A stretch of DNA of 63,993 nt, the filler included, from Dirinaria sp. TL-2023a (taxonomy: Eukaryota): assembly GCA_051941275.1 (NCBI GenBank). It is 5 parts of 5 records of this genome, joined end to end, with 100 filler letters (N's around TTAATTAATTAA, not from the genome) between each part and the next. Parts side by side here need not be neighbours in the genome. Positions count along the whole stretch, not along the records: positions 53,086 to 63,993 come from JAVEBF010000896.1; 4 more parts are not named here. One strand, 5' to 3'. A program made the position numbers and the translations under genes. Positions 1-63,993 of this stretch are shown here, in pieces (positions within the stretch are counted from its first letter, which is position 1; each line of letters starts with the position of its first letter). Under the pieces are notes generated by a model that had not been told where the DNA came from, searched no databases, and was given only the letters and a program-made list of their open reading frames with translations.

Positions 1-1
1 A

Positions 2-3352: not shown

Positions 3353-4202
3353 CTAGCATTGGCCATTGGTGTTGCAGAAATGCCTGTTATTGCGAGCGTT
3401 AGACTATCCAGCTTGCAACTGCGCCTGAGTTCATCAACTTACCAGCTGATGTTGATCTCTCCGGGAGGGTCGAGGTTACCACCAGTCAAAGCTTGGAAAG
3501 CCCCGTGACTCAAATCTAACAGGATTAGCTAATGGTCAAGGATTTCCACTGTTATCAACTTGTTCGCACCAAGATGGTTCTCGTCACAGCTGGGGCAAGT
3601 GTCTGCCACAGTAGCAACGACCACGTTACCAACTCCGTTGTTGCTTTGTCCTCCACCGGTGTTTGTAATCTGGATCTTTCGGCCGCAGTACGGGCCAGGA
3701 GACTGGTTGTTCTGCCAGTAGTTGGACAGCGCAATGATCTTGGACGAATCCTGCGCGAGACATCCATGTCAGCTGTGGAATATACGTGTTATGTGAAGGA
3801 TTCCTCGCAACATTCGAACATTTGTGCTTTCCTTTTACGAGTCTCAAACCCTGTCAAGCTTGTGGTATACAGATAGATACTGGTAAAAAGCGAAGAGCGG
3901 TCTGAAGATAAAGCAGACGTTGGAGTGGCTCAACCGGCACGGGCGCTGCAAAGAGTTTTTGAAGGGCAGACTGTTTGCTTGGGATATAGAGTTAAGTAGA
4001 GGAAAGAAATACCACTGACACTGTTGACTTGACCACAGGAACCTGCAGCTCCACCTTGCTCGTAGAAAGTGGCAACTCCGTCATGACTATTCACAGACCA
4101 TCAGCAAAACCGAATATCAAGCTATGTCTGGAAGAGTACCCACGTTACTGCCATAGCTTGGGTAGCCAAGAAGGCGCCAACGAAAAGGCTTTTGAAGAAC
4201 AT
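3353..4202 (-). CDS. Small secreted RlpA-like double-psi beta-barrel (expansin/loosenin-like) protein, 5 exons, 136 aa
   Basis: Spliced by hand from exons 4202-4144, 4086-4020, 3750-3570, 3515-3443 and 3383-3353 (all GT-AG introns, total 411 nt). Product: MFFKSLFVGAFLATQAMAVTHDGVATFYEQGGAAGSCG...YCGRKIQITN...VADTCPSCDENHLDLSHGAFQAL...ISWHFCNTNGQC. Signal peptide plus the ATFY, GSCG and DxCPxC..HLDLS motifs. Confidence 0.88.
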
Positions 4203-4298
4203 GATTGGTATTCGCTACTGAGTCGAGCTGAGCAAGAGACTGGATAGAATTCTTTGAGGTGTTAGATATGCTTGAGTTCTGTGGGTCCTTGCTCTGCC

Positions 4299-4304
4299 TT
4301 TATA
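4299..4304 (-). promoter_or_regulatory. Candidate TATA box of the expansin-like gene
   Basis: TATAAA on the minus strand about 97 bp upstream of the ATG at 4202. Confidence 0.5.
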
Positions 4305-13059: not shown

Positions 13060-13190
13060 TTAGGGAGAGGAGGCCGAATGTACAATAAATAGGCGTTTGG
13101 GAAAGAGTATTAGCATCAGCATTCGAAAGCAGCATCAAAGACACTTTTTGTCGTTCTAGTCATATCATATATCACCATCCCAAGTATCCC

Positions 13191-13290
13191 NNNNNNNNNN
13201 NNNNNNNNNNNNNNNNNNNNNNNNNNNNNNNNNNTTAATTAATTAANNNNNNNNNNNNNNNNNNNNNNNNNNNNNNNNNNNNNNNNNNNN
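13191..13290. other. Artificial contig spacer (N44-TTAATTAATTAA-N44)
   Basis: 100-bp N-run with a central six-frame-stop/PacI linker at 13235-13246. Identical to the other three spacers. Confidence 0.97.
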
Positions 13291-14164
13291 TAATGGGGGT
13301 TTTCGTTGATATGAGGATTGGTGTTGGTGTTAATGATCAACGCGAGATTTGATAAAGGTATTATTGCGGGAGGGAATGCTGGAAAGTGGAAGCTCTGTTT
13401 TGTGGGAAAGGGGGGGGAGCGGGGAGATTTGGATTTATAATTTCACATGGTGGAAAAGCAAATGGTTAGAAGGAGGAGGAGTTAGCTATTTTGCAGCCTT
13501 GGAAATTGAGGATAGAGTGAGTTGGAAAAGGGAGTTTTCGGTGGCTGGTTGATTGATGGGGACGCTTGTCTTTGATGCGGATGAGGTGGTGGATTCGAGG
13601 GGTTCGTATATCTACCTACCTGCTTTAGGGGTTTGGAGGGTAGATAGATGGCTGTAGTCTGGAGATTGTTCGGAAGCTGTTGGGGATAGTGAGGGGATGA
13701 ATTCTGGCATGATGCTCTTTTTTGGTAGGAAAAGCATTTATTGCGTGCTTTGTTAGGGTCGAAAGGGTGTTTTATGAGTGTGACAGAGACGGATTTTTGG
13801 AATTGAATATTGTAATGCCAGGTTTTATTGTAATTTTTCTGGCACTGACATGATGTTTTGTGCAATTTCGAATGCCTTCGGGCTCGAGCTTCAGAGCTAC
13901 ACGGGTGGAGATATGCTCCAAATGTGTTACTGAACAGCTAATTGGCCTGCAAAGGAAGGGATTCTACCATCTCTTAGCTTGACGGCCCCTGACAGAGATC
14001 TGGACTACTTACTCCTCGCTCAAGCGCTCAAATCGGATTTACCAAAGATATTGAGTGCTGATGGAGACATTTTGATCAGCTTAGATCGAAGTTCTGCAGC
14101 AAGTGCCCGAGGGTTTCGTCTAATTCTCGAAGCTAGGCTACGTCGTCGAGCCTAGGATCATCAT

Positions 14165-24250: not shown

Positions 24251-26477
24251 ATGTCGAAGCTGGCAGAACTACTCAATCCTGCTCCGCGACCAGACCCCTC
24301 GTCGTCTTTGACCAGGGACCCACACTCGGACTCTTCAGATGCTTCAAATAGTCATCAAAGAAGTGACCATAATATGCGCCCGGCCAATATCTACACCGGA
24401 CTCGCTCCCCGACGCCCGTCCATTACCTCTCCTCTCGACGCGCTTGCAGAGGCCGCAACCAGCAGTGCGCCTCTGCCTTCACCATCTTCGACACGATACG
24501 TCAGTCATCACCGAAACCCTTCTTCATCGTCATCCCGACCTACATCAAGCCACACCCCGCAATCGCGAGCGTTCGAGCTCCCACCCGTACCCCAGCAGTC
24601 GGCCGCGCAATCCTCGCCGAGCTTGGAGCAATATTACCACAGCCCAAGCATTGAGGTGATGGGACGAAGACTATCAGGGGCGGGTGATGGCGAATCTCGA
24701 ATCCTGCCTCCGATTCGGTCACTGCAGGAGGAGAATGTGTCACCGCCAGCAGTTGCCGAGCTGCAAACACGCAAAGAAGATAACACTCACTCTACTCAGA
24801 GCACTTTTACTTTACCACCTTATTCCTCACATTTTGAACCTCCAAGGCCGATACCAGAACCTTTGTCTCCAGTCACCGATCAGATTCGACAACCCTCACC
24901 AGGCGCCTCTTATACCGCCCAGGAATCCAACCTTCCAAGTAAGCAAGCCGATCAAGTCCGAGTCAAAACAGAGGTAGCAGAGGCTCCAATTGAGCTACCT
25001 GGATCAGGCGAGCAAGAGACTATGCCAACGACGGAGACCCCAACTGCTTGGTACGCTGCAATAGGCGAAGCGCCACCTTTGAATAAGAGCGTCGCAGACC
25101 TTAGAAGCGATGCGAGCCACAGACCTTCACCTGCGGCGAACATGTCTGATGCACCAGCCAAACCCAAACCTGCTCCATCCAAGAAACGAGCCGCTCCTAA
25201 GAAAGGCACGGCGAACACTGTCAAACCCTCCGCAAAGAAGCGCAAAGTTGATAATGACAATGCTGCGAGTTCGCCGGCTCTGCCGCGCACGGGCACACCG
25301 AACTCAAGCCGCGCCAGCAAGACACCGGCTCCAAGGGGGGCCCAGCAAGGCTCAGTCACACCAGCACCAAAAGGTGGCCAGCGAAGCTCGGTGACGCCGG
25401 CTGGAAAAGGTGGTAAGCAAGGCTCGATCACCCCGGCTCGGAGCTCCTCTGTCGCAAACGCGAACGATGAAGATGATGAAATGGACGAGGGAGATTCGTC
25501 AGAGCTTTTCTGCATATGTCGCAAACCCGACGACCACACCTGGATGATTGGATGTGATGGTCCATGTGAGGATTGGTTCCACGGCCACTGCATCAATATG
25601 ACCGAGAAGGAAGGGAAGCTGATTGAGAAGTATTTCTGTAAGTCAAGCCTTTGGGTCACTGCCAGCCAATTGCTAAGAAGTTGGCCTACAGGTCCTAACT
25701 GTGTGGAAGCGGGCGTGGGCGAGACCCTCTGGAAACCCATGTGCCGCCTCGAGACTTGTCGTGAACCTGCTCAATCAACAGGACCTAAAACCTCCAAATA
25801 CTGCTGCGATGAGCACGGCGCTGAATTCATGCGCCAGCGCGCGCTCAAGCATGAGCCAGAGCAATCGAAGAGGCCAACATCGCCAGTCACGGGCAGGAGA
25901 AGGAGCAGGAAAGACAATTATACCGACAACTTTGGGAACGGCAGCACTCTGATCCAGGATGAGACCGACGATGAGAGCCATTTGCGAGGAGGAGTGCTAC
26001 GACCCAGCGATCTGAAGGCCCTCGCCGGTTCCGCCAAAGATATTGCCGAGTTTCGCAGACTGGGCGAAGGAATCCTTAGCCCGCCCGAAACAGATGTTCC
26101 AGAAGGAGACACCGTCATGGAAGATGCCTCCACCAGCGCTGTCTATACACCGCAAGAAGCCCAGCGTGTTTCCGACATCCAAGCCAGAATGACGCGGCTG
26201 CGCGAACGCAAGCAACTGCTCGACGACCGCGAGACGTTCCTCACCATGGCCAAAGCCCGCGCCAAGGCCGCGCTGCCGGAGAAGAAGAGCGCCGACTTCC
26301 TATGCGGGTTCGATCCGCACCTCGTCTGGACGGACGAAGAGTTCGACGCGTGGCGGAACACGCCCGAAGGCCAACGCTACCTCCAAACCCCTTCCATCGA
26401 CCTGATCCCCTATTCTATCCTCCCTGCCACGAACGGTACTCATATCCAACCACCACCACCACCACCACCACCACCAA
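24251..26477 (+). CDS. SPP1: COMPASS/Set1 complex PHD-finger subunit Spp1 (3' end truncated by the spacer)
   Basis: FCICRKPDDHTWMIGCDGPCEDWFHGHC...KYFC-(in-frame intron about 25638-25691)-PNC, then CRLETCREPA...SKYCCDEHG, a coiled coil and CGFD. Confidence 0.85.
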
Positions 26478-26577
26478 NNNNNNNNNNNNNNNNNNNNNNN
26501 NNNNNNNNNNNNNNNNNNNNNTTAATTAATTAANNNNNNNNNNNNNNNNNNNNNNNNNNNNNNNNNNNNNNNNNNNN
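26478..26577. other. Artificial contig spacer
   Basis: 100-bp N-run with central TTAATTAATTAA. Confidence 0.97.
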
Positions 26578-27622
26578 CGTACGACCCTCGCCACCTTTCT
26601 TCATTTTGAACCCCCATTCTAAAAATTCCAAAACTACTTGAAAACTAATAATCTTCATCCAAATGATAAACCCTGCCATACCTGACCACCTCTAGCCCTG
26701 ATAAAGAAATACTTAACAAAACCCTTAATCTCTAGCACAAAGATATGATAATACTCCCTATCTCCCTACGGATACGAGATCTTCACAATTACAAAGCCCA
26801 AATTTACGCACTGATGAATGAAAAGACCCTATAGATTTGGTCTTACGCAGTGCATACATGCAGGACCGTGTTTTGAAAGGAGTGAAAAGACGATGGAGGC
26901 GTGATAGTAGCTCTCTGTGTCTTACTGTTGTTCAAAGAAAATTTCCAGCTGTTTGCAGCCTCTGTTCTGCCAACACTACTCCTCCAACTTCTCGATCGAG
27001 AAAACATTTCCTTACCAGTAAACATCTGTTGGCCAAAGTCCCATCTTATTCGAGATCTAGATTGGAAAGATTCACTATGTGTGGTCGGAGCTCAGCCTAG
27101 TTCACATATATACAAATGCAAGATCTGGGCTTGGCAAAGCTCCGTAATTAGGCGAGGAGGATAAAGATGCTATCTGCAAACATCCTTTGTGCACTGATAG
27201 CCTATTCGGTTCAGACACATCCCCGAGATCAACTTGCACGGGGTCATGGGCCCTGGGACCCTGTCCCATAGTGACTGCCAAGTACGAGTACGAGTACCTT
27301 ACTAGCTTAGTCATTTCCAGTTTTTATGTGCCTCCGGGCACATAGGAATCCATGCCAGAACCCGCCTGGCAGATTCTGCTGCACCATAGCATGGCCTGGC
27401 CAGACCAGGCCAGTCCCACCTGATCCCAGTCAAGCCAGACCCAGCTCCACGTACCCATCCCATGCCCACATTACCACACCATCCCGAACACCGAACCCCA
27501 ACCGAATATCCAGCGCCTCCATAACATGTGTATAGCGCCTTGCCACCATGCCCGCTGGAACGCTTGAAAGAAGTCTTAGAATGCAGAAATTGTAGCGAAA
27601 GAGAGAAAGAACAAGCTGGGTA

Positions 27623-37657: not shown

Positions 37658-39749
37658 ATGGTAGCTATGCTTTGCTTTACGCACAACTCTCGAAATCTAT
37701 GGCTAGCATCTTTGATCTGCCTTTTATATGCATCGGCTATAGCTATCGCTAGCCCAGATTTCCCCCTAGATTCTCGAACCCATGACGGAGCTGTTGGCCG
37801 CCGTATGGCCGCCGCTCGCCTGACAAAGTCAATCGAGCAGCGAAACATTGAAAGCGCTCTCCGTTACGATCACAAGCTCCACTATCTCGAAGGTAAAAGC
37901 TCTACTTTCTTTGCCGCTGCCTGTTCAAGAACCTTTCCATGACCGTATGCTGTTGATGTTGAAGGTCATCGATGACCTCAATCCGGACGTGACTCTTCGA
38001 AAGATGCCTTGACCTGGGATCCAGGACAAAATCAATCTTTCATCAATTGTTCTAGCCTTCAAGCTCCTCTTTCAATTGAAGATGTTCTTCTCGTCGTATG
38101 GGGTCGATTCAGTGGTCCTAATGTACAGCACAGAGCTCCCCGGAAGTGCCTCCGCGCCCGCTGCGGCCCAGCTTCGGATTTCGACGAAAAAACCAACTCT
38201 AGCCCTTGAAGCTCTCGAAGACCGAATCTGGTCTATTGAATGTGCGAATGGAGAGCTTCGTTTAAGTTTTGCGACGACCGAAGCCCTCGAATCCCTGTAC
38301 AAGTACTTTGACAATACCTCGGGGTTCTTCGTGATTACTTCACACGACACCTGCAACGAGGATGGAGCGCGCAGCGTCTACCTGTACGCTGTCCCCTGGT
38401 CATCTCAACTTCCCAGTCTAACAGCTGCAGTGTCTCTGGTTCGACTATAGATCGTTTCAGTCTCCTTGTCAAGCTTGCAATTACACCTGTATCTTGGCAA
38501 GATGCCTGTCATACGACGAATATCAAGTTCGGTAGCGCCAATGAGGATCTCGTCTTCCGCAAGCCCAATGGACTACGAAAGCGACAAAACACGTTCCCAA
38601 CGGCGACAAGTGCAGTATCAACCATTCCCTTTCCAGTCCCACCATCTTCCAGCCCAACTCCATCGACCACGCACCAAATCCACGAGAACATTAACCTCCA
38701 TTTCCAAAACACTCAGATCCTCCCACCCCAATTTCCCGGAGTGGATAGTACAACCCTGCACGCGCCATTCGTCCCGCACGGCATAACCTTCGGCTGCGCG
38801 AATTGCACCGCAGTGGGCAGCCTCGATCTGATTGAAGGGGAATTCAGCGTCGCCCAAAGTAACACGAGTACCCTACTATCACGCTCAGACATAACAAACG
38901 AAACCGAAACCGTAGAGCACTTCTTCGAACGAGGCTACCTCACCTTCAACCTCAGCAGCTTCACCGCATACATCGAGCTAGACTCTACAATCACCGCCAC
39001 CCACCAGCTCGCAAGCTTCAAAGTTCCCCTTCCCTCAATCCCCCTCTCTCCTTTCCAAATTCCGGGCATTGCCTCCATCGGCCCAATCTTCAACCCCAAT
39101 CTCGAGCTCACGTTCACCGCCGGCACATCATTGAATTTCACCTATGGCTTCACGCTCACACTCCCACCCTCAACCATAACGCTCGACATCGCAAATCTAA
39201 CCAACAGCAATGTCACCGGTTTTCACGGAGCAAACATAACCGCGCTCCCCTTTCAGTCCACCTTTAACTCGATCTCTCTCACCGCTTCGATGGGCTTCAC
39301 ACCTGAACTGCTGCTCGGAGTCTCCGTCTTTTCCGGCTTGGGTACAGCAGGCGCCGGTGCCTATCTCACTCTGCCGTCGGTCTCCGCAACCGTAGCTCAA
39401 GTCTCGCACGTGGATTCGCATTGCGATCCCCTGCCTGCCCCTCAGTCCTCCTCGGACACGACGAATGCCACAGCCGACATCTTCACCTCTCTCACGCACC
39501 TTTCCGCAAGTACAAACCTCTCTGTCGGCCTCGTAGCCGAAGCAGATATCCACGCTGGAAGTTTCAAGCTTGGAGAAGAGCAACTGTTTCCGGTTTTCGA
39601 AACGGGATTCCCACTCCCGACTGCATGTCTGAGTTTCGATGAAGGGAGCAAAGGGTTCGTGCCTGCTACTCAGGTCGTAGCGAGCGCGACTGCGACTGCA
39701 ACTGCCGGGGGCAAGGCTTTGCCGGGCGGGGGGAAGACAGGAGGTGTGG
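37658..39749 (+). CDS. Secreted/putative GPI-anchored beta-rich protein of unknown function (multi-exon, 3' truncated)
   Basis: Hydrophobic signal LWLASLICLLYASAIAIA, then LHYLE, FFVITSHDTCNEDGARSVY, FGCANCTAVG, SPFQIPGIASIGP, LPTACLSF and an Ala/Thr-rich tail. GT-AG introns link the ORF fragments. Confidence 0.7.
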
Positions 39750-39849
39750 NNNNNNNNNNNNNNNNNNNNNNNNNNNNNNNNNNNNNNNNNNNNTTAATTA
39801 ATTAANNNNNNNNNNNNNNNNNNNNNNNNNNNNNNNNNNNNNNNNNNNN
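39750..39849. other. Artificial contig spacer
   Basis: 100-bp N-run with central TTAATTAATTAA, followed by a poly-A contig end. Confidence 0.97.
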
Positions 39850-39885
<36 letters not shown>

Positions 39886-40091
39886 CGCTTAGTTGGTATC
39901 AATGGTCCGCAAGACGCATGAAAAAGGCATTCAAAAATCTCCACACTGCCTCATTCCCCTCTGCCCTGCCTCAGGCCCTTTGCCTCCACAAAAGCAAGGC
40001 TGTTCGAGGTTTCCTAAGGGCAGTAGACCCTTCGAGTAGAACATGAGCTTTATAGACATATCGACCAAAGTTTCTAGGCTATCCCCATCGT

Positions 40092-42258
40092 CTAAAGGCC
40101 CGTCGGCTGCATTTCCTCCTCCGCCCTGTCCTCCTCCTCGCTTTTCAACTCGTCTGGATTGACTTCGTACGCACTTTCGTCCAGACCATTGGTAACATTT
40201 TCATCCTTCGCCTTATCCTTGCTTCTCTGTTCTGCATCTTTGTCATTCCCTTTACCGACCGGTTTGTCGCTTTCGCCATTGGTAGTAGGCTTGGGATCTT
40301 TCTTTTGTGGGCTAACATCCCTCTTTATTGGACTTGGGTCTCGCTTGGGAATCTTCGACTTCTGGTTTTTGTTCTTTTCTTTGCGCGTCTGTGACTCGGC
40401 TCTCTTGCTCTCGTCCTTAGCTTCCTGTTTCTTCTCGGCTTTTGCGTCAGCTTCGTTCGCCGTGTGCTTTGCATTCTCCGCATTTCTGTCGGTCTCGCTC
40501 TTGGCACGCTCGCTTTGGTTTTTACCGCGCAGCGCTTCCATATCTTTCTTCAGCTCCTCCTTTGCCCTCTCGGCGATATCGCTTACATAATTCCGCGCTT
40601 TCTCTGTCGCGTGCTCAACCTTCAATTTAGCTTCGTCTGCAAGATCACCGGTTCTAGCTTCTGACTTCCGGGTCACCTCGTTAAGCTTCACCTTCGCATC
40701 CTCTAGCTTTTCTTTCGCGTTATCGACCTTAGCTTTGACTTCTTTGGGGACTTCAGTCCCCTCGTCAGCATGCTGCTGCTCCTCCATCGCTTCCTTGATT
40801 TCGGTCTCCAGGTCTCTGATCGCGTTGTTCGCACTCTGTTTTGCCACCTCGCGCCTTATCTCCGGCGGAACGCGCTGCTTAGTTCCCAGGACGTATTTTT
40901 GAGTGAAGAACCGGAGAAAGAGTACGGTGAGTGGAACCAGATACAATGCGTTAAGCAGAATCGCAAAGGTTTGACCTGGAGTGTCAAGACAGCTCGTTAT
41001 TTGGTACTCCGATTTGTATATGATCTCTTCAGTAGCGCGCTCAACCGCCGCTGCATGCACAGCATCAATGCCGAAGGTGTTGCCCTGAGCGTTTCGCACA
41101 TTTTCCGCTAGCCCTTCTTCACCAGCAGCGCGCAAAGCGGCCTTCTTGAGCCAGCTGCCTAGTCCGGCAGTAGCGGTGGCAGTTGTTACAGCTGAGGAGA
41201 TAGAGGACGCAGCAGTAGGCAAAGCCGAGGAAATACTGTGCATGAAGACGTAGGGGACCGAGACAGGCCTGCTATATGCGATGAAAAGATGCCCTATGGC
41301 GTAAGTTGCACCAACAACAAATTGCGTAATCTGTAACGTGGTGAGAGTACGTTTAAGGGTTGTAGGGACATGTACTGAGAGCGTCGACGCGGCGTAGTAA
41401 ATGTACTGTTCATGGACTGTGTTAGTGATGCTCGTGGACCCAGCTAAGCTTTTAAGGATAATTATCATGACTTGCCATCAACCCGTGGAGTCCAGAGTTT
41501 ACGATCACAAACACCCATATTGGTGGACTCATATACCGTATTCCGGCCCACATACACATCATCGCCCCGGCATGGTGAAACGTCTGCAAATACGAGCTGT
41601 TCTTTCCTTTGGCCAGAATGATCAACGTATCCACCACCTCATAGAATTTGGAGATGTAGAAAAGCCAGCCGTAGAAGCCCAGGCCCTCATTCCACAGCCT
41701 TCCGACATCAGTCGGGTCAGGCGAACCCTGCAGCAGCTTCATCGTATGATCACCTATCGACCAGCTTCCGGTAGTAGTGTTGTATGCAGCTGCACTGCCC
41801 ATACCCCGCGGCCCATGTATCTTGCACAGCGCGTCCGCCGCCTCTGCCCATTTGTGCTCGCCCTGGAAGCCTGGCCAAGAATGCCTTATGGCTCTTACCA
41901 TGCCAGCGAATGTCCATAGCGAGAAAGCAGCTAAGGCTAGATTGTGTAGAAAGACGAAGGCGAAGAAGATCGCGTTTTGGCTAATTGCCCACGGTTTATT
42001 GTTACGCTTGCGGTTGAGGCGGTTGAGGACTGTGGCAGTGGCAGAGTAGATAATGGCAATGGAGATAGGCCAAGCGACGTGCAGGAGATTGTTGTAGAGC
42101 GTAGGGTCGATACTGAAGGGCTGATGTAAGGTCGGCTCGTCCGTTTGAGGAGCTGGAAGGGCGGTAGGAGCTGATGGCGGAGGAAAGAAAGCAAAGGATG
42201 AGAAAGGGGGTAAGGTGACATGAACGGTAGGCGCCGTCGGCGTGTGAGAGGGGATCAT
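40092..42258 (-). CDS. ELO/GNS1-SUR4 family fatty acid elongase-like protein with long charged C-terminal tail; GC-AG intron
   Basis: FYISKFYEVVDT, LQTFHHAG, NSGLHGLM|YIYYA (splice 41475-41406), LTTLQITQFVVG. An upstream ATG at 42312 is an alternative start. Confidence 0.88.
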
Positions 42259-51326: not shown

Positions 51327-52645
51327 ATGGACAAAGTCAAAGGCGTTGCGAAAGGGGGATGGCACCCAAAAGGCAAGGATGGGGGTAAGGAGAGCTGGCG
51401 GGGTGATTTCAAAGGCATCAACCAAGTCGTATGTCCCGATGCGCGATTCTCCAAGATTCATCTCGATCTAAATCAAGCCCCAGTCTGACAGAATTGGCGA
51501 AGGCAGGTTGGGTTGGCAAGGGTAAAAACCCCCATACTAGTTCGGCTGGAGGTCAAGAGCACCAATCCCGCCCCTTGTCGTCATTGAAAGACCCCGATGC
51601 ATTTGGCCCACCGCCGAAGAACGTCAACTACTACGGTGGGGCTGCAGTACCGAACGCCATCACACCCGACAGAAGGGGACTCGGTGCGCCTTTGAGCACT
51701 GAAGAAGTCCGTGCGAGCCACGAGGCCGAAGAAAGCGAGAAGCGAGCTGCAGAGGAAGCGGCGCAAAAGCCCAAGCCGCCTCCAGTGCCGTATAGGGCGG
51801 ATACCACGGGTCTGACGACAAGTGATCTACCCAGACCACCGGTAAAGCGCATCGACGTCGAAGACGAGGCAAGCTCTGTTGTGTCGGCGAGCCCCACGGT
51901 AAAGCCAAAGCCTACCCTTCCTCCACGCCTCCCACCACGACAAGCTACATCGACGCTAGAGCCTTCGTCGCCGCCCTCCACATACAGTAGCGCAACACAG
52001 CAACAAGCGACAGGCGGAGGGCATCTGAACCAAGGTGCTTTGGGTAGGCTCGGGTCTGCAGGTGTGTCTGTGCCAGGCTTGAATATCGGTGCTGGGTCCA
52101 ACGAAGGTTCCACTACGAGACAAGCTCAGGCATGGCAACCTGCACCAGCTAGAGCATCCACCCCGGTGGGTAGCCAAAAACCCACACTGAACGAACTCCA
52201 TTCGCGTTTTTCCGGCTTGTCGACCAAGTCACCTTCATCTGAGTCGCCTACTCAGGGAACTACCCTTGCACAGAAGCAAGCTGCTTTGAGAACAGCGAGT
52301 AACTTCCGCAATGATCCATCTTCGGTGTCATTATCTGACGCAAAAGCCACGGCTGCGACTGCCAACAATTTTCGTGAACGGCATGGGGATCAGGTAGCAG
52401 CAGGTTGGAAAAGTGCAAATGCATTGAACAAGAAGTATGACGTCGCTGGCAAGGTAGGCGGATTGACTGGAAATGGGCCTGCAAATGAGCAAGATGCGAC
52501 ATCACCTCCTGAATCGGCGACGCCTGCCTCACCGGCCATCATATCTGAGAAGAAGAAGCCTCCGCCTCCTCCACCAAAGCGAGTTGGCACTGGATCCGGG
52601 GCTTCCCCACCACCCATACCTTTGTCTAGCAAGCCAAAGCCATGA
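51327..52645 (+). CDS. Proline-rich AIM3-like actin-associated protein, 2 exons
   Basis: MDKVKGVAKGGWHPKGKDGGKESWRGDFKGINQV-(intron)-AGWVGKGK, PLSSLKDPDAFGPPPK, GTTLAQKQAAL, PPPIPLSSKP. Confidence 0.7.
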
Positions 52646-52985
52646 TATGAGCGCTCAATTGTCACACCTGAAGTGTGTTCCGTGACGAAAAGTTTCCGTT
52701 GGAAGGGAGAAAAATCTTGTAGAAAGCTCCACATCAAAAATTCCCACTATTACCTCTCTTATTCAAAACCCCCTTTTCCCAACCCCATTTCTGATAGACC
52801 ATAGAGACATAATTTCACGACGGAAAAGCGGGCCTATCAACGAGTCGACGTTAGCTATGTTTACCACGAGAAATTGAGAGTGCAGTAAAGAGTATCAACA
52901 CAGCAGATGGGCAATTCAACCTAGATTCATTCTTGTTCCGAGAAACATCTCCCAAACAACTCCTTCACCACCCTCTACCTACAGT

Positions 52986-53085
52986 NNNNNNNNNNNNNNN
53001 NNNNNNNNNNNNNNNNNNNNNNNNNNNNNTTAATTAATTAANNNNNNNNNNNNNNNNNNNNNNNNNNNNNNNNNNNNNNNNNNNN
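52986..53085. other. Artificial contig spacer
   Basis: 100-bp N-run with central TTAATTAATTAA. Confidence 0.97.
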
Positions 53086-53699
53086 CTTAGCGCGGTTCAC
53101 TAGAGGCTTGGCACTCACACATCGGGTACTTAGCACCTTTCCTTCTCACCTGCTTCATACTTTCTTCCAGTAGTCTCTACACAATACATACTATGCACCC
53201 TACCTTGCTACTTGCACCTTATCCTGGATTGCACCCTCATAATCTTAACATTTAGGTATACAATACGATCAGAGTCGATCGATTATTTCAGTCATATTCT
53301 TTGAATGCTTGCTCAATGCTATGAAGCCATCATTATCCTTGTCGCTACTTTGACGTTCATATTCGGAGAAACTCGCTACCCCAATCGATACCTTCAATGG
53401 AAAAATCCGACTTCCCGATTGGTATGAAACAGCCTCGCGCGTTTTATACGGTAAGTACACTACAATTGCAAACTGTATTGTAACAATCTCTGGAGCTGGT
53501 ATCGTCTAAAGCTAACTGTCCTAGGTCTAGTGTTGAATTGAATCTTATAGCCTGCATTACCTTGCGCCCAGATGCCCTTTCCCTTATTAAATCATACACT
53601 TTCCTGCACGCACATTTGCGATACTTATTGAGAAGTGTACTGTGCGTCTGAGTGCAAAAGCTACTCGAGGTCATTTGTGATTACCAGATATTGTTTGAT

Positions 53700-56600
53700 A
53701 TGAGTGGCAATCCCAGTCCGTCTGTAAATATCAGTCGTCGGGAACGATGGCTTGCCTATTTTCCTTTTAGGCACCGTACTCCATCCCCATCACCGTCCTC
53801 ATCGTCTCGGTTGAGCCAAACTGTTAGTTTGTCAATAGCACAGACGTCAAGTTCGATATCCACCCAGGCTATATCCTCGAATACAGCACCAGCCGTACGT
53901 GTCTCCAGTAATTCGTTGACCACTAGCGTTAGCCCGCTATCATTACCGCAAGCGACATCTGCTCCCTCGCCAAACCCAGATCTCCTTCAAAATGTGCTTA
54001 AACGACTCTCAGAAGATGATCGAGCAACTCTACAAGACTGCACGTCCCATAATGTCAGTAACATCGACTTGGCGCTCGAACAAGCTTTGGCCGCGGCGAA
54101 GGAGAAGCAACGATGCTGCATCGAGAAGAGGTGGACATTCACAATTAAAGGGCGAACCGTCGTAATGAAGGAGAAGGCAGATAAGGTGGTCGGCTGGCTG
54201 AACCGATTCGCAGCGGTCGGAGACATCGTGGCCAATGTCGACCCGGTGCATGTGGGCTTGCCGTGGGCTGGCATTCGTCTGATGCTCGAGGTAAAAGCCT
54301 GCGCTTTCGAAATGAATTATCTAGAGATCTTACAATTCAGCTAACAGGCTGCCGTGTCTGAAGCGAACCAGATGACTTCGCTACTCGTTGGATGCGAGAC
54401 TGCCCTGTACATGGCGAACAGACTCAAAGCCTATTTCGAGTTTCTTCATCAGCTGCCGATGACGCTGACCCGCGCCAACTTTGAGATGGCCGTAATAGAG
54501 CTGTATGCGCGTATCCTCGGATTCTTGGCTCACGCTATTCGGATCTACCAGACTTCGACCTCTCATCGTGCACTTCGTGCCTTTTGGACCGACAGTGATA
54601 TTGTAGAATTTGAAAAAGCGTGCAACGAGCTCGGAGCTAGGGCTGAGATTGAGGCGAGCAACTGCGACCGCACACTCGATGCTCAAGATCGAGAGTATAT
54701 CAGAAAGCTGAAGCAAGATCTACAAAAAGTGCTCGAGGAGCTCAAACAATCCCATCAGCTTCAAGTATCGCTCGATCGGCTTGAGACCAAGATTGATCTG
54801 GATAAGTTGCCGTACGCGAAAGGAGCAATGTACAACTCCTACGGAGACGATCACGTCACCTGTCATCCTGACACCCGAGTTGACTTACTTCATGAAATCT
54901 ACGATTGGGCTCAAGATCCTCACAGTAAGATTATATTCTGGCTGAGCGGCTGGGCGGGCATTGGCAAGTCGACGATTTCTCGAACCGTGGCTGAACGGAT
55001 AGCCAGTCAAGGTGGCCTTGACGATGTTGATCTTGGTGCTAGCTTCTTCTTTAAACGTGGTGAAGGTGATCGAGGGTCGGCATCACGATTCTTTTCCACC
55101 ATCACGCGTGAGCTTGTGTTGAAGATATCAGGACTCGATATTTTCATTGCGGACGTGATTAGCCAAGATCCATTAATCTTTGATAAAGCATTAGGTGAAC
55201 AGTTCGACAAGTTAATTTATCAACCATTACGTCAAATGGATTTGACTACGAGTCGTTATACTACTTTCATTGTGGTCGTTGATGCGTTGGACGAGTGTGA
55301 GAAAGAACGGGACGTGAAAGCAATCATCGATCTATGGTCTCGATTAGCCGATCTCGCCACTGTCCGTCTTAAATTACTCCTCACGAGTCGGCCGGAATTA
55401 CCTATTCAACTAGGATTCAAGAACATATCTACAGCCATTCATCAGGATATCGTTCTTCAGGATGCAGTCCCTCAGACAACGATAGAACATGACATTTTGA
55501 TTTTTCTAGAGGATGCTTTTAGGAGAATTCGCGATTCCTACAACTTAGACCCTTTATCAGGAATACGTTTAGATCAAGACTGGCCTGGAGAACAAGAACT
55601 TCAAAGTCTGGTCGATATGGCTTCTCCTCTGTTTATCATTGCAGCAACCGTGTGTCGTTTTGTTGGTGATTCTGACTGGGACCCTCGAGAACGACTGAAA
55701 AAGATTTTACAATCCTCAAGCATTGAAAAATCACAACAGATAGCACAGACGTATCTACCTGTTCTGACTCAGTTATCGACACGATTGAAAGACTCAGATG
55801 ACAAGGATGAGTTGCATCGAGAGTTTCGCATGATCGTCGGATCTATCGTTTCACTTGCTGAGCCACTGTCTAAACAGTCCTTATCTATTCTTCTGAATAT
55901 CTCTGCAGACATAATTGAGCTCCGTCTTCGACCGTTACACTCTGTGCTGCGGATTCCCACTAACTCGGATACACCAGTTCGAACTCTCCACCTATCATTC
56001 AATGAGTTCTTAATCAGTGATCAGCTTCAGTTGGAACCGTTTGGAATTAATGGTCCAGCTACACATCGCATGCTGCTCTCCAGATGCTTACAGTTGCTGT
56101 CTAGGCCTGGAGGTCTAGAAGAGAACATGTGTAAGCTCGAGTATCCTGGTAAGCCAAGACGAGAGATCAATCAAGCCACGATCGATAATCGCCTTACGCC
56201 TGCAGTTCAGTATGCATGTCAGTACTGGGTCCAGCATATTGAACATAGTAAGATTAAGATCCACGATCAAGAAGATGTGCATTTGTTCTTACAGAAGCAC
56301 TTTCTCCATTGGCTTGAAGCAATGAGTTTGATGAGCAGGCTCGCTGTAGTCATTAAACAAATACGAGTATTACAATCACTCGTGTCGGTGAGTGGCTGTT
56401 AAAACTTGCGATTGAGAATTCAATACTGATATTTTTGGTGCAGCCGAATAATTCAACTTATTTGTTAGATTTCCTTCAGGATGCGCTAAGAGTTGTTTTA
56501 GCTAATAGAAATTCTATGGATCTCGCACCGCTTCAGATTTACTCGTCGGCGATGGTTTTCGCACCACAGACCAGCATAGTGAGAAATATCTGTAGTCAAG

Positions 56601-58534
56601 TTCCATCATGGATACGGAGATTCCCAATCACTCCATCAACGTGGAGTCTGGAGTTACAAACGCTCGAGGGACACACTCATGTGGTCAGCGCAGTGGCATT
56701 CTCGCCGGACGGCTCGCTGCTCGCTTCAGCCTCAGATGATGAGACTGTTCGACTGTGGAACCTAGCGACGGGCCAAGAAGTGCAGAAGCTTAAGGGACAC
56801 AGTGATGAGGTTAGCGCAGTGGCATTCTCGCAGGACGGCTCGCTGCTCGCTTCAGCCTCAGATGATCAGACTGTCCGACTGTGGGACCCAGCAACGGGCC
56901 AAGAAGTGCAGAAACTCGAGGGACACACTGACAAAGTCAATGCAGTGGCATTCTCGCAGGACGGCTCGCTGCTCGTTTCAGCCTCGTTTAATGAAACTAT
57001 CCGACTCTGGAACTCAGCAACGGGCCAAGAAATGCAGATGCTCAAAGGACACACTGATCAGATTAACGCAGTGGCGTTCTCGTCGAACGACTCGCTGCTC
57101 GCTTCAGCCTCAGATGATCAGACTATCAGACTGTGGGACTCAGCGACGGGCCAAGAAATGCAGAAACTCGAGGGACACACTGACAAAATCAATGCAGTGG
57201 CATTCTCGCAGGACGGCTCGCTACTCGCTTCAGCCTCAGATGATGAGACTGTTCGACTGTGGAACTCAGCAACTGGTCAAGAAGTGCAGAAGCTCGAAGA
57301 GAACACTCATTGGGTCCGCGCAGTGGCATTCTCGCAAAACGGCTCGCTACTCGCTTCAGCCTCATTTGATGGGACTATCAGACTGTGGGACTCAGCGACG
57401 GGCCAAGAAGTGCAGAAACTCGAGGGACACACTCATGGGGTCAGCGCAGTGGCATTCTCGCAGAACGGCTCGCTACTCGCTTCAGCCTCAAATGATCAGA
57501 CTATCAGATTGTGGGACTTAGCGATGGACCAAGAAATGCAGAAGCTCGAGGAACACGCTACTGAGGTCAACGTAATGGCATTTTCGTCGAACGGCTCGTT
57601 GCTCGCTTTAGCCTCATATGATCAGACTATCAGATTGTGGGACCCAGCGACGGGTCAAGAAGTGCAGAAACTCGACGGACACACTCAAGTGGTCAGCGCA
57701 GTGGCATTCTCGCAGGACGACTCGCTACTCGCTTCAGCCTCATATGATCAGACTATCAGACTGTGGGATCCAGCAACTGGTCAAGAAGTGCAAAAGCTCG
57801 AAGGACACACTCATTGGGTCCGCGCAGTGGCATTCTCGTCGAACGGCTCGTTACTCGCTTCAGCCTCAGATGATCAGATTATCAGACTGTGGAACTCAGC
57901 AACGGGTCGAGAAGTGCAGAAGCTCAAAGGACACACTGATCGGGTCAATGCAGTGACATTCTCGCAAGACGGCTCGCTACTCGCTTCAGCCTCATTTGAT
58001 GAGACTATCAGACTGTGGAACCCAGCAACTGGCCAAGAAGTGCAGAAGCTCGAAGGACACACTCATTGGGTCCGCCCAATGGCATTCTCGCAGGACGGCT
58101 CGCTACTCGCTTCAGCCTCAGATGATCAGACTATCAGACTGTGGGACCCAGCGACGGGCCAAGAAATGCAGAAGCTCGTATTTGGGAAGCGCATTGACAC
58201 ACTTAGCGTTACGAACGGCAATAAAATTCTACTCACTAATCGCATTGAAACACTTAGCTTTACGAACGACGATAAGATTCTACTCACTAATCGGGGGACT
58301 ATAGAAATTGAACAAGGATCGAGACTCGTTCTGCCTCCCGAATCTTCCCCAAATCAGACATCGATGATATACGGCAACTGGATTCGGCAAGGTAGCCGTG
58401 ATCTCCTCTGGCTTCCGCAGGAATATCGGAACTGTAGCTCAGCATTTAATGGCAACACCTTTGCATTTGGATTGCACTCTGGTCAAGTCAATTTTATAAA
58501 GCTTGATTTTCCTTCTAAAATGTCTTATGATTAA
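53700..58534 (+). CDS. Fungal NLR (HET-E/NWD type): N-terminal helical NACHT_N/Goodbye-like domain + NACHT + 12 WD40 repeats, about 1573 aa, 3 exons
   Basis: Exons 53700-54290, 54348-56387 and 56444-58534. DPVHVGLPWAGIRL, CHPDTRVDLL, GWAGIGKST Walker A, VVDALDECE Walker B, LLTSRPE, LHLSFNEFL, FLHWLEAMSL, APLQIYSSA. Confidence 0.93.
56663..58174 (+). repeat. 12 x 126-bp high-identity WD40 tandem repeat array
   Basis: 42-aa unit LEGHTxxVxAVAFSxDGSLLASASxDxTIRLWDxATGQEVQK counted 12 times, with exact 126-bp periodicity. Confidence 0.95.
58190..58291 (+). repeat. 51-bp in-frame tandem duplication in the NLR C-terminus
   Basis: RIDTLSVTNGNKILLTN / RIETLSFTNDDKILLTN. Confidence 0.85.
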
Positions 58535-60507
58535 GATGAAGAAGACAAAACACAAATGTTTGGAACAGTAACTACTATGCTCCAGTAGTGTCTCACCATG
58601 GCAGACAGCTGGCTTTTAGTTTTACGGCAATACAGTCAGGCTCTAGAACATTAAAACAAAAGATGAACTGTAAGCTGTTCCGTTTAACTTATGATCAGCA
58701 GTCTGTCTCTGCATCGGGATTTGAGTCACTTGAATATCAACAGAGGACTGATCAAATTGGTTGTCAGGGACTAGGCTAGGATGACTATCAATATATTATA
58801 TTATAGTCGGATGGACTGAGGTCTATATACATGGTAGTATACAAGACGAAAGACGAGGAAGAAAACAGGACGAAGGTGCGAAAATGTAATTTAACATCAG
58901 ACGAAACCTGCTAGCGCGCCAAGTCAATAGCGCGGCCACACGTGATTGCCTGCCAGGCCTGGCACAGGCCTGGCAACATGACATTGGTGAAACATAAGAA
59001 AGTTAAATGCGAAATATAACTTACACATGAACATCGCTTAAATTTTTTTAAGGTTGTAAAATATTACCTTGAGCTTAGGCCATGCATCTGACCAAATCAC
59101 GCTCTTTTGGTCGGGTGTACTTGAGAAGAATGAATAACGATGTTATCTTATGTTCATAACTTTACAGCAGAGGATTCAGGGGTAGAGGTAGAATTTATTT
59201 GCAGTGTTGTTTCTTGTCGATTGTGCCAGAATCTTCGAGGCATTTCAGAACCTTAGAAAAGTTATAAAAATTTACAAAACTTTTGTTCATATGGGCAGCA
59301 TTAGCAAGCTTCTATAACAACAAAAGCTAGTAAAAGTGTGAACCTTATTCGTATAAAATCTCGAGACCAGATATTAGATCCTTAGCCTATTTAAGCGTTT
59401 TCTCTTGCGACGAAGTAAGATATCATTGGTATAAGTCTTCTTTTGAACGTCGCATATGTACACGACCATGGAGGTAAGAAAGAGAGACATTCCTGTGTCT
59501 CACTATAGCATGGTATTCTTGAGGCTCTCCCAGCAGAAGGCCTCGTGCAAGGGCTGTACAAAGATGGAGACCGGAATGGCACTTCAGCACACAGAGGAAT
59601 CTGACTTGTGGCTGTTCATAGAGGCCCCCAGAAGTACGCCACAATGTCTGGATACAGAGTTATTTAAATCATAATACGACTAGCGTGGTAATAACAAACT
59701 GCGATAAACTCTTCTGGTATGAAATTTTGCTCCCTTATTGTCCGGACAAATTCGGCAAGCTGACTTTCTTGTATTTCGTATCTTCAAATTTTGATCTCAT
59801 AATCTTCCATAATGCTGCTTTCATAATAAAGCTCCGAAATTAATAAAATAGCCTGTAATCATCGAGCAGGGGGGTGCAGTGGGAACGGCTTTCGACGCCA
59901 TGGACGGAATTATTGACAATATGATCACAACAACGGTTTTTTTCCAATGAAATTCAGATCCTTCTGGAGTAACAATCGAAGAACCATTGCATCTTTAAAA
60001 TGACTTGATATGCTGATGAGGGGGGAATTTAATACCGCAAAACAGTAAAATTGTCTCGGCACGGGGGGATTCTCGGCACGCAGGGATGGACGTTACGTGT
60101 TACACACGCTCAAAGGTGGCGTGTATCGAGAATAACTTAAGCATCGTTTTTTGATAAGTGTTATGGAACGAGATTTATGAAAAAGAGCGGTGTTCGTTAT
60201 GGGAAATAGCTATACTCAGCGCCTGAATGCATATCTTCAGTGCGAAGCTACCGAGTAAGACGCTTATAGCATCGAAGCTGTGAGACAGGGACTAACTTAG
60301 TCGACTCAGTCGATAACCAACATTGCAATATGGGAACATGATCTTGTCCATGCGCCAAGTCAGACTTTATGCTATTGTTAACTAAGTTAATATGATGCTT
60401 CAGCCCTAGGTTTTTCAAATCGATGCTCGAGACTCAAGACGACTCTTCTGCCATCGCCGCAAGGAGCGCGCTGAAAGTTTCCCCTTGTTTCTTTCTCACG
60501 CATTCCT

Positions 60508-61379
60508 CTATTCGCTATCTTCACCGTATTCATCCTCATTCATCTCATCATCCTCGTACTCATCATCAGAGCTGTCGCCATATTTCGACGTAGATAATGA
60601 GTAGTTGTCATCATTTTCACCGCAATCTCTATCTTTTCCTTCACTGTCCCTCGAGAATTCACTACCATCTTCACCCTCATCATTATGCTCATGCATACAC
60701 ATATACTCTTTGCCACTATTATCGTTCTTGAAACTACTACGTACCTCGTCGTCCTGACCCTCGGCTTTGATAAGTTGATAAATCTGCGCTAACACGATCT
60801 TCTCGATCGCATTGCAGTAGATTGACGGAGCTCGATGCTTCGCTGCTTTGACTGCGACCTTCAACCAATCGACTTGATCTAAAAGAGATTCTAAAACCCT
60901 TTGAAGTTCCAGCGAGAAGATATCCAAAACCGAGTTCGACAACGAATGACATAGACTAACGATCGAAGAGTCACGTAAGAGAGTTGTGACATTTCGTTCA
61001 TCTTCGTGTTCCGTTGCATGGACTAGATTATCCCATGTTGTTTCAAATGGGATAGAGAAAATCCTCTCGATCTTCGAGATCATCGAGTAAGAAGAGAGCG
61101 AGTAAACGTGAAGAGATTGAGAGTTTCGCGGGGGCAAGAGAGATGGAAGTCGAAGATATTGAGTCGACAGATCTGTCGTATTTGAAACGTTCATGAGTAA
61201 GATATGACAAATTGACTTTCAAGAGGATTTTCTGCTACTTCTCTTGAGATTGAATAGATTTGAAGATTCAGCTTCGATTTAACAGTTATGTACATCCTCA
61301 GATAATGATGACTCACCGCTGCAACCTTCAAGCTTCTGAATTTAGTCTTCGGATCCAGATGTGCTTTTAAAAAGCTCAT
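60508..61379 (-). pseudogene. Degraded unknown gene with acidic C-terminus in the mutated tract
   Basis: Abutting 228-aa and 62-aa ORFs, acidic tail, S/F/E/D-enriched composition like the neighbouring mutated sequence. No family recognised. Confidence 0.35.
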
Positions 61380-62080
61380 AATTTAGCATTTAAAAATAAA
61401 TGAAGTGGGTCAGAATGAGAGAAATGATCTCTGTATTCAAGAAGAAAGACATCGACGTTGAAGGACATGACGGTTGACTTAAGACGAATCGAGCAATGTA
61501 ATAAGAATCTTGACTTTAATATTTGAGATGCAAATGAATTTTACTGATGTTGATCATTCGATCGATTCTTAATCTTCTGGTCTTTGTTAAGGCTCAAGAC
61601 CCGCGTATCTTTTTCTCGATGTATGAAGCGCTGTTCGAATGTCCACACTTCGCTCAAGTAATCTAGATCGTGCGGCTTATAGAACGAAGTGCCGTCAGAA
61701 GTTATTCGAGCATATTCGTAAGTTCTGATCATTCGTTAAGAAACACGAACGATCTGACAAGATCTCAAAAGTGAACAAGCTTGAAATCTCAATCGAGTCG
61801 ACAGAAGTACGATTGATTACAAGTGATGACGATGATTACGTCTGAAAAATACTATCGGAGAGACAACATCTCTTTGAAAAACATTTAAGCAAGCATTCGA
61901 TTGACGCTTATCGAGAGCTATGTCGAGAAGTCGGTGTTTCATTTGAAGCTGTCTCAGCTCAAGAATCGAACGTTGCTGCGAAGAGAAAATCATACGAGCT
62001 GAGATCAGAAGTTAGAAAACGTCTGATCTCTGTCACTGAGACTCAGCTGATGCAGATAATAGAATAATTCGAGTCTCGAA

Positions 62081-62377
62081 GTGAGCTTTACCACGATCAT
62101 CGAACAATTAACAGCGAAGAAGCTAAAATTGACCGCTGAACTAGAGAAGTCAAGCGATCAAACTAAAAAGGCAATAAAGATGAAGGAGCTTGCGGAAGAA
62201 GAGATGACTCGCTTAAAGTCAATCATACAAGCAGTCGAGATGAACAAGAGAATGTTACAGCAACAAGTGCAAGATCTTACAGATCTGATGAAATATTTTC
62301 GAAAGACTATCACACAGTCAGTGAACGAATTTATAAATCGACTCAAGCTTGACTTGAATATCTTGTCTGTAAGATAA
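62081..62377 (+). pseudogene. Coiled-coil ORF remnant
   Basis: Heptad-rich 98-aa frame with no ATG start, in CC/GG-poor sequence. Confidence 0.35.
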
Positions 62378-62711
62378 AATGGCGGATAGAAGTTGTATGA
62401 GACATTGTACCTTAGAACATTAAAGATTGATGAGATAGAGATCTTTGTAAGCGAGGAAGTTGCATAGTCTTTTCAAGACGATAATAAAATCTCATCCCCG
62501 CGTCGTGAAAACAAATCTGAGTAATGAAACTTGATCAAGATACGAATACTTCGATTTTCGAGACTCTCTTTACGATATGGCAACGCGCTGAGGAAGTGCG
62601 TGCTGGGGCACATCTTCTCTGAGGGTTCTACTCGGAAAGAGCACTTTGTGAGAAATGTCCCTCAGACGTCTTCAAAGAACACTGTGAGTGATGCTTATTC
62701 GTTTATTTCAG

Positions 62712-63993
62712 CTTGTCGTTGTTGATGATCAATCTAGCGAGAAGTTTTTCGTCTTGAAAGGTCTCACTGAGCTCCCATTCTCTCGCGATAGCACTCTGTG
62801 TACTCGCTTCGCAACGCAGATTATTCTTCGAAGAGCTGAAGAGACAAGCATGACAGTTTTCATCATTTCATCTTCATCGAGCGATGCAGCACGAGAGACA
62901 AAGCTGAAAGCTTTCAAAGATGATCGCCCGAGAGCCTTCTCGACAGATGACTTCAGTCGCTTGCTGACGAAGATATGTCACTATATCTATTGCAAGCATT
63001 GCTCTAATATTTGAGCTGAAAGAATTGAAGACTAATGATACGATGAGTATTTCTGCTCCTGAGTGTCAAAGAGTCGAGAAGCAATCGAGTTTTTCGATGA
63101 TGTCTTCAGAATTCAGCTCTGCGATTTCGAAAAAAGTCACTTAAGCGTGATTGACGTATCTGAAATATTTCGAACCACTGAAGAAGGCAACATCACTGAT
63201 GAGGATAAATTATTGATCAAGAATATGGTCCGTCGCTACATCGAAAATCCTCGCACCATTATACTTGCGGTAGTAGTCGCCAATGTCGACATTGCAATCA
63301 CGAAAATAGTTGATATGACAGCAGAAATTGATTCGTCCGAGCAGCGAATACTTGAGATCATTATCAAGTCAAATCTGATAGACTCAGAGACGGAACATAA
63401 CGTCATGAACTTAGTTCGGGGCAGAAAGAAGAAGTCAAAGCTTGAATACTGTGTCGTTCGAAATCGAGACAAGCGAGAACAAAATCTCACTTCGATCGAA
63501 CGTAATCGTTTGTAATCAGTTTTTTTGCAGACAGATTCGTGATCATTTTTCGAGCGAAGTCGAGTCGACATACATGCTCTCGTCATTGATGCCAACTCGA
63601 TTTTTTCTGAAAAGCTAGAGAAAAGAGAGTGCACGACTACTTTCTGTGAGACTAATCATCTTTCTAGTAAGAGATCTAGAAAGTTCAAAACAATGCGGTC
63701 TCGCAAGCTGAAGCTCAAAGAAGAAATATTAACGTCGATTAAAAAGACGATAGTCGAGAAAAATCAAAATGAAGAATTCACGACGTTCGAGTCTTTCGAG
63801 TATTATGAGATATTTAACATCTTGTCGATTACATCAAACTCTTTTCTTTCTCAGATAGAAGACGTTCTAGAATGAATCGAGCGTGAATATAAGTCTTCGA
63901 GAATTTTTGAGCTCGACAGTTTCAATTCATTCATCTTCTCGACCCTTTTTCAAGAATTGTCAGTCAAATGAGAAGATCTGACGAGCCGATAAG
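62712..63993 (+). pseudogene. Dynamin-like (fungal Mx/Vps1-like) GTPase pseudogene, runs off the window
   Basis: Degenerate G motifs LVVVDDQSSEKFFVLKGLTELPFSRDSTLCTRFATQIILRR (G1/G2), LSVIDVSEIF (G3), NPRTIILAVV.ANVDIA, IIIKSNL (G4) and YCVVRNR. In-frame stops, several TGA where W is expected. Confidence 0.88.

Follow-up and report, generated by a model that had tools for sequence, protein, structure and literature searches.

We describe here a hypermutated tract at the right-hand end of a 63,993-nucleotide stretch of DNA (hereafter the window), made of five joined parts of the genome assembly of Dirinaria sp. TL-2023a (NCBI GenBank GCA_051941275.1), the last of which, positions 53,086 to 63,993, derives from record JAVEBF010000896.1. 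The tract is depleted in the dinucleotides CC and GG and includes a disrupted copy of a gene for a dynamin-family GTPase. We consider it probable that this copy of a duplicated segment was inactivated by a burst of enzymatic cytosine mutation similar to repeat-induced point mutation (RIP), with specificity for the CpC dinucleotide and TCCR (R being A or G) as the best context.

Composition and extent of the tract

The preliminary description of this DNA had proposed a tract at 60500..63993, poor in CC and GG and still rich in CpA/TpG and CpG, and dinucleotide observed/expected ratios confirmed this composition. The CC/GG ratio was 0.38 in 60500-63993 and 0.91 in 1-58000, and the corresponding values were 1.65 and 1.14 for GA/TC and 1.34 and 0.94 for CG. 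The CA/TG ratio was little changed (0.99 and 1.10), and TA was lower, with no excess (0.55 and 0.72). The region contains 105 CC plus GG dinucleotides, a clear depletion against the 280.3 predicted by its base composition and the 255 predicted by the background ratio (Poisson P ~1e-26). When the window was scanned with sliding windows of 3494 bp (n = 242), the six lowest CC/GG ratios all overlapped the tract (minimum 0.41, median 0.91), and every 1-kb window of the tract was depleted on both strands (CC 0.33-0.70, GG 0.25-0.43).

At 100-bp resolution the CC/GG depletion begins near 60100 and is strongest from about 61200. The left limit first given had to be moved, as both the depletion and the multi-copy depth reported below start at about 60050-60100 and not at 60500. 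The tract is accordingly defined as follows:

60100..63993, no strand assigned: hypermutated CC/GG-depleted tract, left edge approximate, running to the window end (composition, contig depth).

The tract has a GC content of 40%. Its most depleted trinucleotides are CCA/TGG and GCC/GGC and its most enriched are TCT, TCA, TCG (1.64-fold) and TTC. Comparison of 60000-63993 with the window by blastn and tblastx returned the self match only.

Mutational spectrum in a pair of near-identical loci

Loci encoding relatives, 24 in all, were collected from public metagenome contigs, and six of them carry intact genes that can be aligned to the window copy. Two of the 24, the lichen-metagenome loci L001 and L007, represent the same locus and aligned without gaps over 7864 bp at 91.8% identity. 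L001 is intact and shows normal CC/GG ratios throughout, whereas L007 shows values of 0.16-0.33 over its first ~7 kb and normal ones thereafter. The five other intact homologues side with L001, and L007 has TGA where they have TGG, indicating that L007 is the derived state.

From L001 to L007 there are 646 differences, namely 329 G>A, 314 C>T and 3 others. The transitions fall almost entirely at CpC/GpG (593/643), with a further 41 at CpG; the base 3' of the mutated cytosine is C in 292 of the 314 C>T changes and the base 5' of the mutated guanine is G in 301 of the 329 G>A changes. Within positions 1-6500 the mutation rates were 546/769 (71%) for CpC, 40/728 (5.5%) for CpG, 3/892 for CpA and 6/881 for CpT. 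The wider motif described below rests on 852 CpC sites, 586 of them mutated; saturation of CpC sites is about 70%. The changes thin out at ~7050-7420, fading over about 400 bp, and the last 445 bp hold only two differences, neither of them C>T. Since only three other substitutions accompany the 643 transitions, these must reflect a burst and not a slow decay. The order of C>T and G>A changes along the locus is close to random (285 runs against 322 expected, z = -2.95).

The pair also allowed the target to be defined beyond the dinucleotide. When T precedes the CpC, 228 of 278 sites were mutated, and in the position following it A and G favoured mutation and C hindered it (A 224/267, G 147/175, T 165/241, C 50/169). 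TCCA was changed at 91 of its 93 sites, and in CCC runs the middle C was converted in ~80% of cases and the first in ~30%. Over the part inspected, protein P0132 agrees with the sequence of L007.

Direction and context of changes in the window copy

The copy present in the window was identified as a member of the dynamin family, as had been proposed. An exhaustive HMMER search returned 2368 relatives, the best being P0129 (61% identity, E 2e-103), and Pfam Dynamin_N matches 63063-63512 (E 1.9e-7). With regard to the defining features of the family, a Dynamin_N GTPase domain with the G1 motif GxxxxGKS and a middle domain after it, the intact L001 orthologue carries both Dynamin_N and Dynamin_M. 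The features of the window copy, all on the plus strand, are the following:

62691..63993, plus strand: pseudogene of a dynamin-family (Mx-like) GTPase, truncated where the window ends (Dynamin_N match, DNA alignment).
62718-62744, plus strand: mutated G1 motif, DDQSSEKF against GDQSSGKS in the homologues.
~62975-63060, plus strand: retained intron (DNA alignment with intact homologues).
Codons starting at 63540 (63540..63542), 63012, 63873 and 63969, plus strand: Trp TGG>TGA, aligned to Trp of intact relatives.
63089..63090, plus strand: 1-bp deletion, a frameshift against all intact homologues (DNA alignment).
63581..63582, plus strand: site of a 261-bp in-frame deletion against the homologues (alignment); two contigs of the metagenome run X1, introduced below, have a loose end at 63572.

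The frame 62529-63992 contains 13 stop codons, of which ten are TGA, three TAA and none TAG, as predicted by a GG>GA change. Retention of the intron indicates that the copy arose by duplication at the DNA level.

Ancestral states were derived from the aligned homologues. In 794 columns all six homologues agree, and the window copy differs at 171 of these: 61 changes are G>A and 53 C>T (114 together), 24 are the reverse transitions T>C and A>G, and 33 are transversions. On this strict consensus, 44 of 66 CpC sites were hit, against 27 of 157 in the other contexts (Fisher P 1.5e-12), the latter consisting of CpT 15/63, CpA 6/46 and CpG 6/48. A 75% majority consensus gave CpC 61/101, CpT 37/124, CpA 15/90 and CpG 22/108. 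At the protein level, 148 of 416 aligned residues differ from the intact proteins; C>T or G>A accounts for 89 of these and the opposite direction for 14. Where the amino-acid pair leaves the context free, C>T was followed on its 3' side by C in 11 cases, T in 9, A in 2 and G in none, and G>A was preceded on its 5' side by G in 16, A in 9, T in 5 and C in 4. Judging from these reconstructed states, the CpC preference holds in the window copy.

The codon changes originally listed from a protein consensus were found in the DNA alignment, namely GGG>GAG, TCC>TTC, TTGGAA>TTGAAA, CCT>TCT, GGT CCC>GAT TTC, TGG>TGA, ACC>ATC and CCA>TCA, with GDQ>DDQ occurring as GGC>GAT. The preference for the 5' C of CpC, or the 3' G of GpG, which they had suggested was thus recovered both here (44/66 CpC sites) and in the L001/L007 pair. 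The modest number of CpT hits (15/63) and the two deletions had gone unmentioned.

Association of the tract with a repeated segment

Contigs from run X1, a public lichen metagenome of a close relative containing 31% of the words of the stretch, were mapped on 57000-63993; a second run, X2, contained next to none of it. The summed contig depth in X1, which is not a copy number, was 5.5-10 over 58170-60041 and 16-37 over 60042-63993, with the exception of the bin 61212-61445 (5.7). On its left side, this multi-copy segment begins where the CC/GG depletion sets in. Among the listed flank contigs the sequences were ~99% alike (4/497, 8/905 and 7/566 letters different), while the tract pieces were 86-92% alike among the longest matches listed, with 95 more beyond these. 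Differences from the window consisted of 614 transitions and 99 transversions. The 261-bp segment lost from the window copy is still kept by other copies in X1.

Several diverged copies of the tract segment thus clearly exist. The proposal that the tract is repeat-associated agrees with these data, as the tract coincides with a segment at 2-4 times the summed depth of its flank whose copies differ from the window mostly by transitions.

Occurrence in other assemblies

The signature was also observed in an older paralogue group, L012-L020, where it covers a paralogous 1.5-kb dynamin segment (~4500-5500 in locus coordinates) in eight assemblies, with CC/GG ratios of 0.34-0.49. The context bias is weaker in this group, with CpC hit at 72 of 202 sites against 10-19% in the other contexts. 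In addition, a fresh CpC>TpC tract is present at the locus ends (L015:7500-9169) in L015, L016 and L017 and absent from L012, L013, L014, L019 and L020. From L012 to L015 we counted 81 C>T/G>A changes, 64 of which are at CpC and 58 within the last 1.7 kb; the flanks of the two loci are ~99% alike and the tract ~96%. As the fresh tract occurs in some assemblies only, the process is polymorphic among samples, and as the window dynamin copy is only ~70% identical to these loci, it has affected at least two lineages. The contig of L015 shares its record-name prefix with that of the intact L001.

A further low-CC stretch, L009:3750-5250, was seen on a related metagenome contig, immediately 3' of a dynamin homologue. 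It is an AT-rich island (GC 0.22-0.25, TpA observed/expected ~0.9) in which all cytosine contexts are depleted, and it was rejected as a CpC signature because this composition resembles that of classical RIP. The lichen data thus contain tracts of either kind. Further mutated copies seem to be represented by the database proteins P0131, P0245 and P0280.

Gene content of the tract and of the rest of the window

Upstream of the dynamin copy, the tract contains the following two features:

60511..61218, minus strand: copy of a gene for a small acidic-tailed protein, 236-codon open frame with Pro>Ser and Ser>Phe changes (13 relatives).
61219..62690, no strand assigned: strongly CC/GG-depleted sequence of unrecognised origin between the two genes (composition).

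The family encoded at 60511-61218 is conserved in Lecanoromycetes (e.g., Stereocaulon) and has a LQRVLDSLLDQVDWL core and a long Asp/Glu tail. The product of the window copy itself is P0279, to which the likewise mutated-looking P0280 is 74% identical. Compared with a 70% consensus of eight homologues it shows 60 mismatches, 24 of which are explained by C>T/G>A and ten by the reverse changes; Pro>Ser accounts for ten, and the frame has no stop. The 236-residue product gave no usable match in the protein atlas, and its family has no Pfam entry. In 61219..62690 CC/GG counts are 0-5 per 100 bp over most of the sequence and reach 8 in 62601-62700. A six-frame search of 60400-62700 returned no Pfam family, and tblastx of the same interval against the 24 loci found no similarity.

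The genes in the rest of the window are ordinary fungal ones and encode an SDH flavoprotein, MIOS, Spt5, a patatin lipase, ELO and a NACHT-WD40 NLR. The best named relatives of the patatin open frame are from lichen-forming Lecanoromycetes (Heterodermia 73% identical, many Teloschistales 67-69%), with further database proteins at 90-97%. An intact NACHT-WD40 NLR gene with two introns (53652-58534, plus strand) adjoins the mutated tract. The in-frame stop at 54342 falls within the branch site of an intron, and 56388-56442 is intronic. Its WD40 array (56662-58178) consists of twelve tandem units of 126 bp with 83% matches; 87 of 155 unit-to-consensus differences are G>A or C>T, 29 of these 87 in CpC context. 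The CC depletion at 56500-58000, which affects the plus strand only, was discarded as a sign of hypermutation, because the 126-bp WD40 consensus unit has by itself a CC ratio of 0.39 and a GG ratio of 0.88. Four runs of 88 N, within ~12500-14000, 25500-27500, 39000-40500 and 52000-54000, show that the source of the window is a draft assembly with scaffold gaps.

Relation to known hypermutation systems

Among fungal defences against repeats RIP is the textbook case, and every survey tool measures its CpA signature. The process described here shares with the RIP of Neurospora crassa the exclusive occurrence of C:G>T:A transitions (643/646 from L001 to L007) on both strands. As in the RID- and DIM-2-dependent RIP of N. 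crassa and other Pezizomycotina, the tracts extend over several kb and fade out over a short flank, and they may likewise be confined to the duplicated segment; heavy saturation and the killing of genes as well as transposons are further common traits. In contrast to Neurospora RIP, the target is CpC (546/769) and not CpA (3/892), and there is no gain of TpA. Moreover, the GC content falls only from ~0.51 to 0.42, unlike in classical RIP.

Lineage-specific shifts in the context of a repeat-associated C>T mutator have precedents, to which the present case can be likened: a RIP-like hypermutation in TpCpG context was reportedly found in Pucciniomycotina (Microbotryum) by Horns et al. in 2012, and RIP is CpG-biased in Aspergillus and Penicillium. 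Neither the TCG nor the CpG type was retained as an explanation, as only 40 of 728 CpG sites (5.5%) were hit and the TCG enrichment of the window tract reflects the product and not the target. APOBEC3G deaminates the 3' C of CC (GG>AG) on single-stranded cDNA, giving a strand-asymmetric pattern. CC-associated C>T, seen also as GG-associated G>A, is common to both processes, and editing of this kind was rejected since here it is the 5' C that is hit (GG>GA, 301/329; ten TGA stops and no TAG in the window copy), C>T and G>A are balanced (314 and 329) and the intron is retained.

The available sections of the RIPper description give as cut-offs for RIP a TpA/ApT above 1.15, a (CpA+TpG)/(ApC+GpT) of at most 0.75 and a composite index above 0 (PMC7882544). 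The window tract returned 0.55, 1.25 and -0.69, all negative for classical RIP, in agreement with the earlier suggestion that standard RIP indices would miss it. Its (CpC+GpG)/(TpC+GpA) index was instead 0.15, against 0.81 in 1-53000. In the consulted part of the RIPCAL paper, this index is defined together with a CpC>TpC class, which is among the four that are formally possible (Hane and Oliver 2008, PMC2621366). The process described here belongs to the same dinucleotide class, and the CpC index detects the window tract; in that part of the paper the class serves as bookkeeping, CpA being dominant in the analysed species and no CpC-dominant taxon being named (PMC2621366). The sections at hand of a kingdom-wide survey from 2025 attribute a shared CpA preference to RIP-like defences, and the terms CpC and TpC are absent from the survey (PMC12543289).

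In lichens, RIP has been called from GC content (10-35%) or RIPper for the LRARs of Xanthoria (10.1101/2025.11.25.690456) and for Cladonia rangiformis (PMC12542154), according to the accessible portions of both reports. As far as these portions go, the RIP islands of Xanthoria and Cladonia have in common with our tract the fungal class and a role in genome defence against repeats, and they differ from it in that the tract keeps 40% GC and fails the RIPper indices. No report of CpC-dominant RIP or hypermutation was found in open-access full text, a search that does not cover subscription journals and preprint supplements.

Proposed mechanism and alternative explanations

The process that we favour would involve one copy of a duplicated multi-gene segment, comprising the acidic protein gene, the unrecognised sequence and the intron-bearing dynamin-family GTPase gene, in the nuclear DNA of a Lecanoromycete that forms lichens. 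An enzymatic C-to-T burst would have acted on both DNA strands, confined to the multi-kb tract and leaving the flanks nearly clean. The target is set by the base 3' of the cytosine, the 5' C of CpC being converted, with TCCA and TCCG as best motifs and the first C of CCC largely spared. The spectrum of the mutations and its context, saturation, restriction to tracts and polymorphism between samples were observed directly, as was the multi-copy state of the window tract. Duplication may act as the trigger, as in RIP, and the mutator may act in the sexual cycle, where RIP occurs premeiotically.

A candidate enzyme would be a homologue of the RID/Masc1-type or DIM-2-type cytosine methyltransferases with an altered flank preference. 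The enzymes linked to RIP are RID, Masc1 and DIM-2, whereas APOBEC/AID-type deaminases recognise the 5' flank of their target, A3A/B reading TC and AID reading WRC. A target set by its 3' neighbour is in keeping with cytosine-methyltransferase-like enzymes, and one of the RID/DIM-2 type acting on duplicated DNA is therefore favoured. Homologues of RID and DIM-2 are reported in the Lecanoromycete Cladonia rangiformis, in the accessible part of that study (PMC12542154).

Several observations weigh against this mechanism. The true progenitor of the window copy is absent from our data, its ancestral states being taken from homologues ~65-73% identical at the DNA level (69-73% for the six intact genes). 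CpT is raised in the window copy (15/63 strict, 37/124 majority) and CpA and CpG stand at 12-20%; these rates may represent either divergence noise or a weaker secondary target, and some extra background noise is to be expected when the progenitor is replaced by homologues. The window copy has also suffered two deletions (1 bp and 261 bp), a change that RIP does not make. As to the repeat, the 2-4-fold excess of the tract over its flank in X1 is one of summed contig depth and not of copy number, no clear context bias was seen at the 35 X1 variant positions listed, with 713 more beyond these, and no second copy of L007 was found among the 24 loci. Finally, CpC is the least-used context of Neurospora RIP, so that a RID-type enzyme would need a reversed preference.

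Among the alternatives, the one that survives best is a mutator unrelated to RID and DIM-2 and independent of a repeat trigger that hits chosen loci. It might be a protein with a deaminase fold (APOBEC/AID-like or a double-strand DNA deaminase), and its targets might be foreign, introgressed or heterochromatic DNA. Such an enzyme would account for L007 lacking a partner copy among the 24 loci, for the moderate preference for T at -1 (228/278), which recalls TC-type deaminases, and for the lack of a CpC preference in RIP as described in the available parts of the literature. We nevertheless judge it unlikely, since the decisive base lies 3' of the target (CpC 71% against CpA 0.3%), on the side opposite to that read by APOBEC/AID enzymes, both strands are equally hit with the changes interspersed, unlike in single-strand or retro-copy editing, the intron is retained and the window tract is multi-copy.

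The slow decay of a CpC-methylated tract, losing 5-methylcytosine by spontaneous deamination over long times, would equally yield only C>T/G>A changes in a specific context, and the weaker CpC bias of the older L012-L020 group (72/202 against 10-19%) would be in line with it. This explanation is close to refuted and seems very improbable, as L007 accumulated 643 transitions against 3 other substitutions in 7864 bp with 71% of CpC converted, and L012/L015 tell the same, their flanks being ~99% and their tract ~96% alike. An artefact of sequencing damage or assembly, or an ordinary compositional or codon bias, might be suspected in a scaffolded draft with 88-N gaps whose WD40 array (56662-58178) shows a low CC ratio (0.39) as a property of its repeated coding unit, and is refuted for practical purposes by bounded tracts with normal flanks on the same contig, by recurrence of the signature in separate assemblies and Logan contigs, and by the creation of stops and replacement of conserved Gly, Pro and Trp with both strands affected.

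Returning to a RIP-like burst with CpC specificity, a bolder version of it can be put forward only tentatively. Lichen-forming Lecanoromycetes might carry a second genome-defence mutator, enzymatically distinct from CpA-RIP, that would convert the 5' C of CpC (TCC followed by A or G) in duplex DNA in a single, near-saturating burst and would coexist with classical AT-rich RIP islands. It might be active now in natural populations, since samples differ in whether one and the same locus is mutated or still intact. Because GC would be lowered by only ~9 points and TpA left unchanged, such a mutator would be invisible to every index-based RIP survey.

Implications

Surveys based on indices would underestimate the extent of genome defence in lichen fungi, and perhaps in other organisms. 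If the enzyme behind these changes can have its flank preference reversed, the deaminating step of RIP may become approachable, either by comparing the target-recognition regions of RID and DIM-2 or through a different enzyme; what deaminates cytosine in RIP is a long-open question. An enzyme editing TCCR on double-stranded DNA would also interest base-editing work.

A CpC>TpC change makes stop codons only from TGG, so that long open frames persist in mutated copies, which are then annotated as proteins; P0131, P0132, P0245 and P0280 would be translations of such hypermutated copies in public protein sets. Duplicated immune-type genes, such as the dynamin/Mx-like GTPase adjoining an NLR, would be culled in lichen fungi with stop codons rarely created. 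The polymorphic tracts may also help to trace recent sexual cycles where laboratory crosses are impossible.

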